Part shown: in pieces, positions 34,283-58,668 of the stretch | How positions within the stretch are numbered: position 1 is the stretch's first letter | Layout: each line of letters starts with the position of its first letter | DNA from: Dehalococcoidia bacterium | GTDB taxonomy: Bacteria > Chloroflexota > Dehalococcoidia > Lucifugimonadales > JAGWBF01 | NCBI GenBank assembly: GCA_965116325.1 | Contig: OZ220675.1 | Span: forward strand, 385,138-449,137 | Direction of reading: 5' to 3' | Length of the DNA: 64,000 nt | The notes under the pieces: model-generated | Database searches by the model: none | What the model saw: only the letters and a program-made list of their open reading frames with translations | What the model was told of the DNA's origin: nothing | Translations under genes and position numbers: made by a program

Positions 34283-35020
34283 TTACCGGCCCCTGGTATC
34301 TCCCCACAGGTAGATGTGCAGGCGGGGGCTGAACCTCAGGTTCTCGTTCACGCAAAGCTGGCTGAGCCACGCGCTCCGCTCCTGGAGCACTGACGGGGTT
34401 CGACCCTCGGGCGAGAGGAGCACCCGCTCCCTGGGAATGGCCAGTTCTTCGACTAGCCTGCGCACCTCTTCCATGTCGGACTCTCTCGTAACCACGAACT
34501 TGAAGAAGGCCTGCGGCATGGCAGCGAAGGTCCTTAATGCCCCCGGAACGTAGCGCTTCTCCAGGGTGTTTCCCGACGTTGCCAGCTTGGGGGAGACGTT
34601 CCATTGGTCGATGTACGTGGCCATCTCAGTCGTTGGTGCAATGGTGCCGTTGGTCTCAACCTCGAAGGTGAACCCCCGGCGTTTTAAGGAGCCAATCAGT
34701 CCAGCCATCTGCTCTTGCTGCATCAATGGCTCGCCCCCGGTGACCACCATATGGGAACAGCCGTAACGCAGCACCTCGCGCTCCACATCCTCAGCGGAAA
34801 TATCCACCACCTCTTTGTCGTAGTCGTAGTTCTTCCAGTCCCACGTGTACTTGGTGTCGCACCAGGTGCAGGCCAGGTTGCACTGGGCCAAGCGCAGAAA
34901 CACTGCAGGAATCCCGGCCAAGGTGCCCTCGCCCTGGAGGGTGTGGAAAATCTCCGGCCTTCCGTCGGCCCCGCGGCTTACTTTGAGGGACGTGGTCGAG
35001 TTTCGGACATCTGCATTCAT
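34283..35020 (-). CDS. queE: 7-carboxy-7-deazaguanine synthase (radical SAM)
   Basis: Carries QGEG..AG.P.VFLRLAQCNLACTWCDTKYTW, with operon context alongside queC/D/F. Confidence 0.9.
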   Translation of the reverse strand: MNADVRNSTTSLKVSRGADGRPEIFHTLQGEGTLAGIPAVFLRLAQCNLACTWCDTKYTWDWKNYDYDKEVVDISAEDVEREVLRYGCSHMVVTGGEPLMQQEQMAGLIGSLKRRGFTFEVETNGTIAPTTEMATYIDQWNVSPKLATSGNTLEKRYVPGALRTFAAMPQAFFKFVVTRESDMEEVRRLVEELAIPRERVLLSPEGRTPSVLQERSAWLSQLCVNENLRFSPRLHIYLWGDTRGR

Positions 35021-35766
35021 TCCGACCCGCCCTTCAGCCTGACCAGCAGGGGGTCGGGATACCCCGCCTCTTCAAAGCCCTTGGCCCGCAGGATGCAGCT
35101 GTCGCAGGAACCGCAGGGCTCAGAACCTCCCTGGTAGCAGCTCCAGGTGTTGGCGAGGGGAGCGTCCAGCTCCATGGCCCACTGGACAATCTCCGCCTTT
35201 GACATGTGGATGATGGGCGTCTCGATTTCCATGGGGACGCTGTACTCACTCCACAGCTTGCTCCCGTATTTCAGGACCTCCTTCATTTTCTCGAAGAACT
35301 CGGGCCGGCAATCGGGATACCCGCTGTAGTCGATGGCGTTGGGGGCCATAAAGAGAGTGGCCTGCAGCTCATCGGCCATAACCTTCTCTTGCTCTATGGC
35401 CCACAGCGCCTGGCTCTCCAGGTAGGCCGCCCCAACGGTGATGAAGTAGGTGTTGCGCAGGGGCACGTAGGAGCTGGGAATGGACTGGCCCATCAGACTG
35501 GCATCCCGCTCTTCGGGCAGGGAGACTACGTCCGGGCTGGTCAGGGCCGAGTACCAAGCGACCTTCCCGAAGGAGGACACATCCACCAGCTCATGGCGGA
35601 TGCCCAGGGATGCGCTGACCTGGCGGGCGCTGTCCAGCTCGGTGCTGTGGGTCTGGCCGTAGTAGAAGGTGAGGGCACTCAACCGGTCAGTCCTGCCTTT
35701 GGCAAAAGCAGAGACAGTGGTGGAGTCCAGCCCGCCGGAGAGGAGGGTGACGCCAATGCTGACCAT
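35017..35766 (-). CDS. queC: 7-cyano-7-deazaguanine synthase
   Basis: Carries the LLSGGLDSTT PP-loop and the C-terminal Zn motif CYQG...CGSCDSC. Confidence 0.93.
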   Translation of the reverse strand: MVSIGVTLLSGGLDSTTVSAFAKGRTDRLSALTFYYGQTHSTELDSARQVSASLGIRHELVDVSSFGKVAWYSALTSPDVVSLPEERDASLMGQSIPSSYVPLRNTYFITVGAAYLESQALWAIEQEKVMADELQATLFMAPNAIDYSGYPDCRPEFFEKMKEVLKYGSKLWSEYSVPMEIETPIIHMSKAEIVQWAMELDAPLANTWSCYQGGSEPCGSCDSCILRAKGFEEAGYPDPLLVRLKGGSE

Positions 35767-36194
35767 TAGGGAGCCGATCGATATTCAGCGTATTGCGTGG
35801 GGGACTCCCACATTCGGACCGCTGCCGGCTCGATTCCACAAAGCTCCCTGGTCTTGTGGTATATCTCCCGGGCCATCACTTCAGCCGATGGGTTTACCCC
35901 GTCGAAAAGGTACAGAAACTGCTCCTTGACTCCCTTCAGGGCTTCGAGAAGCTCTCCGTCCCCGCTGTTCAACAAGAAGGCGTGGTCCCAGTTCATCTCT
36001 ATCCAGGCGGACACCTTCCGCTTCAGCTCACTGAAATCCACGACGAATCCGACGCTGTCCAGGGCATTGGAGGATACGAAGATTTCGACCTTGTAGTTGT
36101 GGCCGTGGGGGTGGATGCACTTGCCGTCGTGGTCCAGGAGCCGGTGGCCGGCGGAGAACTCCAGCTCCACCCGCACCTGGAAGTCATCCTTCAT
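35766..36194 (-). CDS. queD: 6-carboxy-5,6,7,8-tetrahydropterin synthase
   Basis: Carries FSAGHRL....KC...HGHNY. Confidence 0.9.
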   Translation of the reverse strand: MKDDFQVRVELEFSAGHRLLDHDGKCIHPHGHNYKVEIFVSSNALDSVGFVVDFSELKRKVSAWIEMNWDHAFLLNSGDGELLEALKGVKEQFLYLFDGVNPSAEVMAREIYHKTRELCGIEPAAVRMWESPTQYAEYRSAP

Positions 36195-36652
36195 GGTCGC
36201 TGCTCGGTGAGCGCCCTCTCGCGAGGCAGACCCTCAGCCGGATACCTGGCAGTAACGGTTGTGTGCAGACCGCCCCGGACCTTGTAGTCCAGGACTACCT
36301 CCATCCGATGGGGTTTGCAGGCGCCCACCAGGTCGTCCAGAATGCGGTTTGCGGCGCTTTCCTGAACAATGCCCACGTCCCTGTAGGAAAGCAAGTAGTA
36401 CTTGAGGGACTTGAGCTCGATACATAGCTTGTGAGGCTCATAGGTGATGCTCAGGGTCCCGTAGTCCGGGAGGCCCGTCCAGGGACACACGGCGGTGAAT
36501 TCGTCGGTCTCTATATGGACCTCGGAGTCTCCGCAAGAAGGCTCGTAGTCGAAGGACATCAGGATTGCGCTGTCGATGGACGCCTCGGGCCCTCCCTCGA
36601 TGCGCCGATCCAGGTTCTCGTAGCGATCTTTCAGCGATGCTATAGATGCCAT
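36191..36652 (-). CDS. queF: NADPH-dependent 7-cyano-7-deazaguanine reductase (type I)
   Basis: Carries EFTAVCPWTGLPDYGTLSITY and SLKYYLLSYR. Confidence 0.9.
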   Translation of the reverse strand: MASIASLKDRYENLDRRIEGGPEASIDSAILMSFDYEPSCGDSEVHIETDEFTAVCPWTGLPDYGTLSITYEPHKLCIELKSLKYYLLSYRDVGIVQESAANRILDDLVGACKPHRMEVVLDYKVRGGLHTTVTARYPAEGLPRERALTEQRP

Positions 36653-36716
36653 GTCTGTAACTTATCCCCTGTCTGCCGGGATATGCACTCCGGATGGCAG
36701 ACGAGTGGCTTATTCA

Positions 36717-36745
36717 ATGATAGGTTAAGGCCCAATAGGTGTCAA
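36717..36745 (-). promoter_or_regulatory. Sigma70-like promoter of the queFDCE operon
   Basis: On the reverse strand, TTGACA (36740-36745), a 17-nt spacer and TATCAT (36717-36722), with a leader of about 60 nt. Confidence 0.5.
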
Positions 36746-37245
36746 AACCCACGGACGGCCCCCTCCTCTCTCCTTGTCATTCCTATAGTGCTGGGGTATC
36801 CTTGTTGTATCTGCCAGGTACGGGAGGGCCCTTGGCCCACGCAGGGGAAGAGGCGTTGAAAGACCAGTCCACAACAGACAAACTCGCCGGCGCCGAGCTG
36901 CTCGAATCCCCAGCAGAACTGGAAGAGATACAGGTGCTGCTGAAAGAGGCGGTCGCTTCGGAGCCTTCCCTTCGACTGCTGCCCAAGTTCGCTATGGCGC
37001 GAGCCGGAAACCCCGACTTCCACCGGGTCTACTTCGCCATCCATTGCACATGTGGGACTGCGGGCCTCGTCTGCGTCGAAACAGCCAAGTCCAAGACCCT
37101 GCCCCAGGTTGAGAATGCTCTGCCTACCCTCGCACAGCACCTGTTGAGCAGGGCAAGGCAGTTTGCCAGCATGCCCTGCTCAATGCACACAAGCATGCGC
37201 TCTATGGGCATCCAGGCTTCGAAGCAAGCTGGTGAGGGGAGCTGA
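36739..37245 (+). CDS. Hypothetical Cys-containing protein, start uncertain, stop 1 nt before the FTR-like gene
   Basis: The open frame ends at TGA 37243-37245 and the next ATG is at 37247. I recognise no family. In-frame TTG candidates lie at 36832 and 36856. An antisense ORF of similar length exists. Confidence 0.35.
   Translation: MSKPTDGPLLSPCHSYSAGVSLLYLPGTGGPLAHAGEEALKDQSTTDKLAGAELLESPAELEEIQVLLKEAVASEPSLRLLPKFAMARAGNPDFHRVYFAIHCTCGTAGLVCVETAKSKTLPQVENALPTLAQHLLSRARQFASMPCSMHTSMRSMGIQASKQAGEGS
36775..36803 (+). promoter_or_regulatory. Possible promoter for the selenoprotein operon
   Basis: TTGTCA (36775-36780), a 17-nt spacer and TATCCT (36798-36803). The -10 is weak. If it is real, the ORF start at 36739 is not used. 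Confidence 0.2.
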
Positions 37246-37246
37246 T

Positions 37247-37663
37247 ATGCCAAAGAAGATCGACCCGGAAAAGGCGATGGAGGGCGCCATCCGCTTTTCG
37301 GAAAAGTACGTAGAGAAGAGCGGGTACAAGTTCTTCCCCGACCAGGAAGTGGTACGCCTCGTGCAGGAAGGCCTGGCCCGCAACCAGGTGGAGTACGGGT
37401 ACCGCTACTGCCCCTGAATGCCCCTCAGCGGCGATCCCGTCGAGGACCGCAAGAAGATTTGCCCCTGCGACCGGCACCATGAGGACATAGAACGGGATGG
37501 TTTCTGTATTTGAATGTTCTTCGTAAGCGAAGAGTTTCTTCGCCAACAGGAACAAGGAAACGACATCGAGCAGACCATAGGTGAGGCAGTTAAGCCCGGT
37601 GAAGGCCTGTTCGACCAGCCATATAAGTCGAAAGCAGACCAGAAGGGCAGCCAGAGTACGTAG
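37247..37663 (+). CDS. Ferredoxin:thioredoxin reductase catalytic-subunit homolog, predicted selenoprotein with two Sec (UGA at 37415-37417 and 37511-37513)
   Basis: GAGGGGA RBS. The read-through translation is MPKK..FSEKYVEKSGYKFFPDQEVVRLVQEGLARNQVEYGYRYCP-U-MPLSGDPVEDRKKICPCDRHHEDIERDGFCI-U-MFFVSEEF... It aligns to the FTR motifs CPC / CPC / CHCMLF, and both UGAs sit on the second Cys of motifs 1 and 3. The frame stays open to TAG 37661. Confidence 0.75.
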
Positions 37664-37678
37664 AGGAGCTGAGAAGCT

Positions 37679-37915
37679 GTGAGCATAACCGTTTACACAT
37701 CTGTTGGTTGAGGCCCCTGCCACATGGTGAAAGTGTATCTTTCACAGAAGGGGCTCGAGTTCACCGAACGAAACGTATCGCTGGACGAAAATGCCAGAGA
37801 AGACCTGCTCTCCCTGGGATATCGCAGCACACCCGTGACTGTGATAAACGACGAGAAGGTCGTAGGTTACAGTCCTCCCAAGCTGGAAGAAGCCCTGCAG
37901 ACAGCCGGGATCTAG
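37679..37915 (+). CDS. NrdH/glutaredoxin-like redoxin, predicted selenoprotein (UGA at 37709-37711; active site U-G-P-C)
   Basis: GTG start 10 nt after GAGGAG. The translation (M)SITVYTSVG-U-GPCHMVKVYLSQKGLEFTERNVSLDENAREDLLSLGYRSTPVTVINDEKVVGYSP fits the Grx/NrdH fold. The tracked ORF (37724-) lacks strand 1 and the CxxC motif. Confidence 0.8.
37713..37754 (+). promoter_or_regulatory. SECIS-like stem-loop 3' of the redoxin UGA
   Basis: Lower stem GCCCCU/AGGGGC (37713-18 / 37749-54), upper stem GUGAAAG/CUUUCAC (37727-33 / 37739-45) and apical loop UGUAU, about 23 nt after the UGA. Confidence 0.5.
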
Positions 37916-37969
37916 ACACACGCAACCGGCGAGAAGGCTTTCTGTCGCTGCTCTATGGCGGAAGTTGGG

Positions 37970-38872
37970 CTACTTGCCCAGGAGCTTCATCAGTAGAGCC
38001 ATCCTGACGTACAAGCCGTTCTCCGCTTGACGATAGCCGGCCCAGCGGGGGTCGCCAGTCTCCTCGATCACCAGATCGCTGCGTTGCATAGGGTCGAGGA
38101 TCACACACCCGGGTTTTAGGGCCGCCAGCAGCTCATTGTCAACCTTGGCTTCCGCTATGTTGCGGCTTCTCACCAGCTCCGCATGGCCCGGGGTGCTTGC
38201 GCCGTTGACGTACACCGCATCTAGGGATCCGGCCAGATCCATCAAAGATGTGCCCTGGGTGAATGCGATGCCCGCCCCGGTGCTGTAGTCGATGGTGTCC
38301 TGGTCAGCCTGTCCCGTTACAGGGAACAGGTGCACCTTGATGTTCTCGTACATGGCGAGGGCCGTCAAAAGGGCGTTCACGTTTCTATGATCGAGCCTGC
38401 CCAGGAAGGCGATGTTCAGCCCATCGACACTCCCCAACTCCCGCTTGAGTGTGTACAAGTCCAGGAGCGCCTGGGTAGGGTGGTCTTCGGGGCTGCCCCC
38501 ATTGATGACCGCCAGGCCTCCGGCCTCGGCAGCTTGCTCCGCCGCCCCCGTCTGCTGAGACCTTAAGACGACCACGTCGAAGTGCAGACTGCCCAGGAAC
38601 CTCATTGTGTTCTCTATGAAAGTGGTTGTTCTGACGGGGAAGAACTGGGATGCATCCTCGGTGTGCTGGGCATCGCCCCCGAGTAGGGCCATCGCCCGCT
38701 CGAAGGATGCCCGGGTTAGAAAGCTGGGCTCGTAAAACAGGCAGTACAGGGACCGTCCCTGCAACGCCTGTGCAACGGGAGCGCCGTCTCGAATGCGGTC
38801 GCACAGGGGAAACAGATCCTCTTCGATCCATTGACGCTCCATGTCCCTGGTCCGTATCAGATGATTCGGCAA
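37970..38872 (-). CDS. Aspartate/ornithine carbamoyltransferase-family protein with degenerate carbamoyl-phosphate motifs
   Basis: HPTQALLD is present. The STRTR motif reads SFLTR, and the HP(L/A)P region reads DPMQ. Confidence 0.75.
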   Translation of the reverse strand: MPNHLIRTRDMERQWIEEDLFPLCDRIRDGAPVAQALQGRSLYCLFYEPSFLTRASFERAMALLGGDAQHTEDASQFFPVRTTTFIENTMRFLGSLHFDVVVLRSQQTGAAEQAAEAGGLAVINGGSPEDHPTQALLDLYTLKRELGSVDGLNIAFLGRLDHRNVNALLTALAMYENIKVHLFPVTGQADQDTIDYSTGAGIAFTQGTSLMDLAGSLDAVYVNGASTPGHAELVRSRNIAEAKVDNELLAALKPGCVILDPMQRSDLVIEETGDPRWAGYRQAENGLYVRMALLMKLLGK

Positions 38873-52777: not shown

Positions 52778-53109
52778 TGGTGGAGACGGGGGAGGGTCGA
52801 ACTCCCCGTCCAGAAGGCAGCCCAGCTAGATATACTACAGGCTTATCCGGTCCTTAACTCTCGCCCTGCCGTGCTTCACCGGCATAACATGGCAGGCCTC
52901 AGCCGATGTTTCTTGAGCTGCCCTTATCGGCGTCTGGACAACAGCATCCCGGAATTATGGCGCCTGTGACCCAACCTCCGGGCATGGTCGGGGCAGACGA
53001 GCCGCCAGTTTAGGCGGCTAGGGCGAGTTCACGTTCGCCAGTTACTGTTTTGCCACCTGTTTAGCGAGGTGGATGGCACCTCGGCCTGCGATCCTCCAGG
53101 TTGGTCCCC
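52778..53109 (-). ncRNA. ssrA: tmRNA (ssrA), tag reading frame GGC GAA CGU GAA CUC GCC CUA GCC GCC UAA = GERELALAA
   Basis: On the reverse strand, the 5' GGGGACC... pairs with the 3' ...GGGGAGUUCGACCCUCCCCCGUCUCCACCA (tRNA-Ala-like acceptor with G3:U70, T-arm and encoded CCA). The tag ORF lies at 53010-53039. Confidence 0.9.
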
Positions 53110-53186
53110 TGTCGAACCCACGCGTCCCCAGATGTGTGAACACCCATATTATCCCACTTCTCACGCTTCCCCGTCCAGTGCCGAGC

Positions 53187-58596: not shown

Positions 58597-58668
58597 GGGG
58601 CTGTAGCTCAGGGGGAGAGCACCTGCTTTGCACGCAGGGGGTCAGGGGTTCGAATCCCCTCAGCTCCA
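58597..58668 (+). tRNA. tRNA-Ala (anticodon UGC)
   Basis: Cloverleaf: acceptor GGGGCUG/CAGCUCC with G3:U70, D-arm GCUC/GAGC, anticodon loop cuUGCac, T-arm AGGGG-UUCGAAU-CCCCU. CCA is not encoded. Confidence 0.93.

Follow-up and report, generated by a model that had tools for sequence, protein, structure and literature searches.

Selenoprotein glutaredoxins (PF00462, with a UxxC motif) are recorded in prokaryotic catalogues, and a Clostridium glutaredoxin containing selenocysteine (Sec), characterised by Kim et al. 2011, is cited in PMC13188914. The GOS metagenome survey of 2008 lists both "Grx" and "Grx-like" UxxC selenoproteins, and it is also the source, from GOS reads, of the first report of an FTR in which both redox-active positions are Sec (PMC2398784). 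UxxC Sec-glutaredoxins are thereby already known, being catalogued and experimentally supported, and the double-Sec FtrB protein is modelled in NCBIfam. In FTR, four Cys residues bind a [4Fe-4S] cluster, and a nearby disulfide formed by Cys57 and Cys87 reduces thioredoxin. In this reaction a mixed disulfide is formed with the first Cys of the thioredoxin WCGPC motif, the N-terminal one, which is exposed.

The locus described here, located in a 64-kb stretch of DNA (termed the window), places one member of each protein type side by side in a three-gene cassette, orfX-ftrB-grx (Table 1). A literature search for an FtrB-Grx selenoprotein pairing returned no description, whether of the orfX-FtrB(U,U)-Grx(U) cassette or of the three-selenium relay that it implies. 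In the reading that we consider most likely, with a probability of roughly 0.85, the last gene of the cassette encodes a UGPC redoxin whose UGA is recoded by a SECIS element within the ORF and which serves as a dedicated substrate of FtrB.

Table 1. Features of the orfX-ftrB-grx cassette, in window coordinates
Feature	Position	Strand	Remarks and evidence
orfX, conserved uncharacterised protein	36832..37245	+	137 aa as called; present in 76/80 loci; C72, C74, C116 and H119 invariant
Predicted FtrB-family double-selenoprotein, FTR catalytic-subunit homologue	37247..37663	+	CP-U...CPC...CI-U; UGAs at 37415-37417 and 37511-37513
Shine-Dalgarno-like GAGGAG	37663..37668	+	10 nt before GTG 37679; overlaps the FtrB stop codon
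Predicted Sec-containing glutaredoxin-like redoxin gene	37679..37915	+	78 aa; GTG start; UGA as predicted Sec codon 11; TAG stop
In-frame UGA at the N-terminal nucleophilic position of U-G-P-C	37709..37711	+	TGA in 80/80 loci; first CxxC Cys in Grx/NrdH structures and in Cys homologues
Lower stem CCCCU / AGGGG, weaker and variable	37714..37753	+	Encloses the upper stem-loop; in many sequences, not all; outside the consensus
Truncated 63-aa ORF from gene callers, MVKVY... start	37724..37915	+	ORF list; homologue lengths
SECIS-like upper stem-loop GUGAAAG-UGUAU-CUUUCAC	37727..37745	+	7 bp, 5-nt loop, invariant GU; fold, consensus and frozen codons

The redoxin gene reads GTG-AGC-ATA-ACC-GTT-TAC-ACA-TCT-GTT-GGT-TGA(37709)-GGC-CCC-TGC-CAC-ATG(37724) and ends with the residues ...QTAGI and a TAG at 37913-37915. 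The mechanical ORF list holds only the 63-aa product that begins MVKVYLSQKG. The first-pass annotation had proposed that the UGA encodes the nucleophile of a CxxC-type motif, U-G-P-C, hidden behind this truncated ORF call, and the coordinates and residues that it gave were all recovered. It had also taken GTG 37679 to be the only sensible start, which agrees with the layout of the region: an in-frame TGA lies upstream at 37670-37672, GTG 37679 is the sole canonical in-frame start ahead of TGA 37709-37711, and a GAGGAG stands before it. Likewise, its statement that the called ORF is missing both the first strand and the CxxC motif is borne out by Pfam, in which this ORF matches positions 14-58 only of the Glutaredoxin profile.

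With Cys put in place of the UGA-encoded residue, the 78-aa read-through product aligns over the whole of the Pfam Glutaredoxin profile PF00462 (E 2.4e-14, 53.7 bits, gathering cut-off 22.9), with product residues 3-59 covering profile positions 1-58 of 60. Moreover, the glutaredoxin structure 7c10 (E 2e-14) and the NrdH-redoxin structures 4fiw, 1r7h and 1h75 align with it end to end, and the CPHC or CVQC of the solved glutaredoxin and NrdH structures falls on U-G-P-C, with U at the position of the first Cys. Scores against NCBIfam models are lower than their cut-offs throughout: the best, the YruB-family model TIGR02196, scores 73.8 bits against a cut-off of 88.55, the NrdH models TIGR02194 and NF007657 score 59.3 against 85.75 and 40.4 against 131, and the UXX-star selenoprotein models (NF041212 and related) score 44 against 66 bits. 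Thioredoxin (PF00085) is not among the Pfam matches, and other thioredoxin-like models lie under their cut-offs. No nrd genes were found near the redoxin gene, and the linkage to the class Ib ribonucleotide reductase genes nrdI, nrdE and nrdF is not present here. The original label of an NrdH/glutaredoxin-like gene consequently holds for the glutaredoxin domain, and for NrdH it holds at the level of the fold, but not by NCBIfam cut-off or by nrd context. Judged by these alignments, the redoxin is a protein of predicted glutaredoxin fold close to NrdH and YruB and is not a demonstrable member of either. Its xGPC is a motif of the thioredoxin type, and VVGYSPP stands where the GG..D glutathione-site motif would be expected. 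Together, the xGPC motif and the missing GG..D suggest that the reductant is a protein rather than glutathione.

A protein search with the redoxin returned 272 relatives. The best 120 of these are all 62-79 aa long, most of them 63-67, and in none does the alignment reach the N-terminal stretch of the query with the CxxC site; all 25 relatives that were aligned begin at MVK. Product lengths in this range are given by all gene callers and database entries, and the Met at 37724 is invariant, both of which favour a gene that truly starts at this ATG, with a 63-aa CxxC-less fragment as its product and the upstream similarity as a relic. The DNA of the relatives tells otherwise. It was taken from 80 species-level genomes, all of them Dehalococcoidia, SAR202 or other Chloroflexota, and counting back five codons from the conserved Met leads to TGA in 80/80 loci. 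In these loci GPC[HRQ]M comes after the TGA and I-x-V-[YF]-[TS]-S-x-G before it, the latter headed by a start codon and, further upstream, by a stop. Most orthologues have an ATG aligned with GTG 37679, as in ..VMDITVYTS.., and the conserved peptide is thus bracketed by a start codon and an in-frame stop. Within this peptide, V-6, S-3 and G-1 change little or not at all, yet each is encoded by three to four synonymous codons (codon entropy H 1.65 bits at V-6 and 1.60 bits at S-3), a pattern that points to selection on the protein and not on the DNA. The ten codons before the TGA are under such protein-level selection in all 80 genomes, whereas a relic would decay rather than keep its TGA in 80 species; in addition, the 63-aa form would be without the first beta-strand of the fold. 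A start at 37724 is accordingly scarcely credible, and the relatives that begin at MVK without the CxxC part are truncated gene calls. The expectation from the first-pass annotation that the region upstream of Met 37724 be conserved as protein is upheld in this comparison, and orthologues without a CxxC-bearing N-terminus, which would have spoken against it, do not occur at the DNA level. A pseudogene, a sequencing error and a relic N-terminus were each considered and ruled out by the 80/80 TGA and the protein-level conservation.

An exhaustive search for Cys homologues, with the truncated redoxin (P0001) as query, recovered full-length relatives with Cys at the U position and 37-51% identity. 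Their motifs include CGPC in P0146 (SCGPCQMVK), CKPC in P0155 and CAPC in P0202. Both motif forms foreseen for orthologues were found, U-G-P-C in all 80 loci examined and CGPC among Cys homologues such as P0146. One entry of the same family, P0127, has the TGA translated as Trp (W). The gene neighbourhoods of the Cys homologues differ: FtrB is not found beside P0180 or P0197, and the contigs of P0146 and P0202 are too short to tell. P0197 adjoins genes of nucleoside metabolism, and P0180, which belongs to another subfamily, has a NifU-like gene and one of the UGSC family as neighbours. At this marine locus (L084, 2334-3240), P0180 has a CSTC motif and abuts an 81-aa NifU-like CxxC protein, and the UGSC family represented next to it is a known selenoprotein family. 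In a separate observation, many other glutaredoxin representatives of about 65-80 aa (P0138, P0140, P0141 and P0148 among them) start inside or just after the CxxC, for example MFCGRVKEFLSQ. These are probably further truncated Sec-glutaredoxin-like families in which the start was called after the UGA.

Downstream of the UGA, a hairpin is predicted within the coding sequence. A stretch of 52 nt that starts with the UGA folds with -19.8 kcal/mol (z -2.4), the loop UGUAY begins 22 nt after the UGA, and the RNAalifold consensus gives the same 7-bp stem. Codon counts over 80 distinct sequences (the window plus the 80 loci) show that the stem codons from +6 to +11, the Tyr codon excepted, are nearly fixed: GTG in 80/80, AAA in 75 and AAG in 5, GTG in 78/78, CTT in 80/80 and TCA in 78/80. 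CTT (Leu) and TCA (Ser) are each one of six possible codons, and the change from AAA to AAG keeps a G-U pair in the stem. By contrast, the loop Tyr codon at +9 varies freely (TAT 55, TAC 25), and the entropy of codons +6, +7, +8, +10 and +11 is 0-0.34 bits as against 1.5-2.2 bits for other invariant residues. The frozen bases are exactly those of the 7-bp stem; a predicted hairpin lies at the place where the Sec reading would lead one to look, and it is held constant at synonymous sites. No compensatory double changes occur in the stem among the aligned sequences; the variation consists of A-U pairs turned into G-U and of a single break. An invariant stem leaves no covariation to show, and the freeze at synonymous sites serves as evidence instead. 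When 36500-38500 was scanned against Rfam with hits admitted to E 10, chance miRNA and lncRNA matches were all that appeared and no SECIS family was among them, an outcome to which we attach no weight.

Bacterial SECIS elements are sought by bSECISearch as a stem-loop placed shortly 3ʹ of the UGA whose apical loop is located some 16-37 nt downstream and carries a G close to its beginning. Each of these properties appears in the predicted redoxin hairpin. In the SECIS of E. coli fdhF, the loop bases are G23-U24; in the redoxin gene, the invariant loop G-U occupies positions 27-28 counted from the U of the UGA. The position of the hairpin and its loop G-U therefore fit a bacterial SECIS as far as primary sequence and predicted folding can tell.

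Whether the UGA might instead be read as Trp, Cys or Gly, by reassignment of the code or by near-cognate suppression, bears on the genetic code of the organism and on its Sec machinery. In the window, 41 ORFs have a length of 200 aa or more; they end with TAG in 18 cases, TAA in 16 and TGA in 7, at 60% GC, and all but one of the seven TGA stops belong to ATGA, GTGA or TTGA start-stop overlaps. As a stop that stands free of such overlaps TGA appears depleted, and heavy use of Sec might have to do with this. Neither the 64-kb window nor the 80 loci contained a SelA, SelB or SelD motif in a six-frame search; the patterns used were G[C/U]G[CAS]K for SelD, GH[VI]DHGK[TS] for SelB and, around the PLP lysine, GDK..GG[PS]Q for SelA. 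ARAGORN likewise found no tRNA-Sec in either the window or these loci, and a search of the window for other selenoprotein genes, with codon-score and motif filters, gave only noise beyond the three UGAs of the cassette. The rarity of TGA as a stop, the Sec machinery not found in the window and the translation of P0127 with W all lend something to non-Sec read-through. Nevertheless, TGA still terminates seven of the 41 long ORFs, which argues against global reassignment, and the codon stands at the catalytic CxxC Cys, a position at which Trp or Gly would leave the protein inactive. Furthermore, a frozen hairpin with a GU loop lies at SECIS distance, the three UGAs of the cassette all fall on redox-active Cys positions, and the neighbouring FtrB belongs to a curated selenoprotein family. 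The lineage is also documented as Sec-using: BSepDB, which counted only species that carry two or more of the key genes for the Sec pathway (queries SelA, SelB and SelD), includes two MAGs of Dehalococcoidia, for which it gives 46 and 49 selenoprotein genes. Read-through with an amino acid other than Sec is thus highly improbable, and from the agreement of these sequence features we infer insertion of Sec at UGA 37709.

The gene upstream of the redoxin encodes an FtrB protein whose assignment is firm by profile. It scores 226.3 bits against NCBIfam NF041072, "FtrB family double-selenoprotein" (cut-off 160), and matches Pfam FeThRed_B (PF02943) with E 7e-26. Its sequence reads ...YCP-U-MPLSGDPVEDRKKICPCDRHHEDIERDGFCI-U-MFF..., in which the four cluster-ligand Cys residues are retained and both redox-active positions are predicted to be Sec. 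Gene callers report FtrB as a 56-aa fragment. Codons after its second UGA are frozen (AGC GAA GAG TTT CTT CGC), and the frozen sites coincide with a predicted hairpin, GCGAAGA-GUU-UCUUCGC. The FtrB stop TAG at 37661-37663 leaves a 15-nt gap to the redoxin gene. A CP*..CPC..C[IL]* gene lies directly upstream of the redoxin on the same strand in 79/80 loci, and both of its UGAs are conserved in 79/79.

These findings suggest the following mechanism. The SECIS hairpin at 37727-37745, inside the coding sequence, would recode UGA 37709 to Sec. The FtrB-type reductase, with a [4Fe-4S] cluster and both redox-active residues Sec, would then reduce the Sec-Cys selenenylsulfide of the redoxin, probably via an intermolecular Se-Se intermediate, and the reduced redoxin would pass electrons on to disulfides of target proteins. 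To our knowledge, intermolecular Se-Se chemistry is undescribed for any thiol-disulfide relay. FtrB as the reductant, the Se-Se intermediate and the downstream targets are put forward as plausible steps, and for transfer from FtrB to the redoxin the argument is the adjacency of their genes. The redoxin could also be reduced by another enzyme, such as an NADPH-thioredoxin reductase, with the adjacency of FtrB reflecting co-regulation or a shared target. NrdH-redoxins, the closest characterised relatives, use thioredoxin reductase, and Cys homologues of other subfamilies (P0180, for example) are without an FtrB link. Against this stand the FtrB adjacency in 79/80 loci, on the same strand, with a 15-nt gap and a ribosome-binding site that overlaps the FtrB stop, the CGPC-type motif shared with thioredoxins, which are FTR substrates, and the conversion of all three redox-active positions to Sec together. 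We consider a separate reductase unlikely and favour FtrB as the partner of the redoxin.

The first gene of the cassette, orfX, is separated from the start of FtrB by 1 nt. Neither Pfam nor NCBIfam has a match for it, and its 305 relatives are all unnamed or labelled "hypothetical protein", none with a Pfam domain; those with a named source come from Dehalococcoidia, SAR202 or other Chloroflexota. A confident AlphaFold model of orfX has a pLDDT of 83, with the core above 90, and a PDB fold search with this model gave no match (best E 0.1). The protein may be an accessory or electron-input subunit, a third component of the redox module. A bolder version, which we hold to be possible but on the whole doubtful, would make orfX, FtrB(U,U) and Grx(U) an obligate, lineage-specific "all-selenium" relay, in which orfX is a new metal or Fe-S partner that replaces the FTR variable subunit or ferredoxin dock and the FtrB diselenide reduces the redoxin via Se-Se.

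The redoxin neighbourhood comprises orfX, FtrB, the queCDEF genes, a carbamoyltransferase-like gene and an epimerase. Upstream of the cassette lie queFDCE and downstream the carbamoyltransferase-like gene, both on the other strand, and the orfX, FtrB and redoxin genes therefore form a unit of their own, ahead of which a weak promoter-like site is found at 36774-36802. The queE-queC-queD-queF string, for a 7-deazaguanine/queuosine precursor, runs divergently from the cassette at 34283-36652 (-), and at 36745-36717 (-) there is a strong match to a sigma-70-like promoter. In many SAR202-type genomes (L024-L080), the cassette is located between a tRNA-Val(gac) upstream and a tRNA-Asp(gtc) just downstream of the redoxin, as at 1963-2039 and 3296-3373 of L033. 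Elsewhere in the window are a tmRNA gene at 52778-53129 (-), with the tag peptide GERELALAA, and a tRNA-Ala(tgc) at 58597-58668 (+).

General knowledge of selenoproteins is unchanged by the redoxin. Its pairing with FtrB, by comparison, offers a concrete candidate substrate for enzymes that, since 2008, have been known as a family from their sequences only, and suggests a redox relay with selenium at all three exchanging residues. Dehalococcoidia and SAR202 are abundant bacteria of soil and the deep ocean. Across both groups the family is systematically mis-annotated, as is evident from the truncation of the best 120 entries and from the fact that no NCBIfam selenoprotein model reaches its cut-off.

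Compared with the described systems, the redoxin resembles selenoprotein Grx in its Pfam domain, in the N-terminal position of the predicted Sec within a CxxC-type motif, in its candidate bacterial SECIS within the ORF and in the excess of Cys homologues over Sec forms. It differs in its UGPC motif, in having no recognisable glutathione-site motif, in its link to a double-Sec FtrB (79/80 loci) and in the restriction of its subfamily to Dehalococcoidia/SAR202. With NrdH and YruB it shares a length of about 75-80 aa, the fold and the strand 1-CxxC-helix layout, and, like them, it is probably reduced by a protein reductase and not by glutathione. Unlike NrdH, however, it has UGPC in place of CVQC, VVGYSPP in place of WSGFRP and no nrdIEF neighbourhood. 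The UXX-star selenoproteins (NF041212, NF041211 and NF041114) have a distantly similar Grx-like fold, but their Sec lies in a different motif and the redoxin is without their UXX-stop C-terminus. With thioredoxin the redoxin shares only xGPC and not the WCGPC domain match. The arrangement as a whole is like the FTR-thioredoxin system in that a small redoxin of the CGPC type would be the partner of FtrB. It departs from that system in three respects: no variable subunit is present, and an unrelated orfX with three conserved Cys and one His precedes FtrB instead; the partner has a fold of the glutaredoxin/NrdH type; and this partner is itself a predicted selenoprotein.
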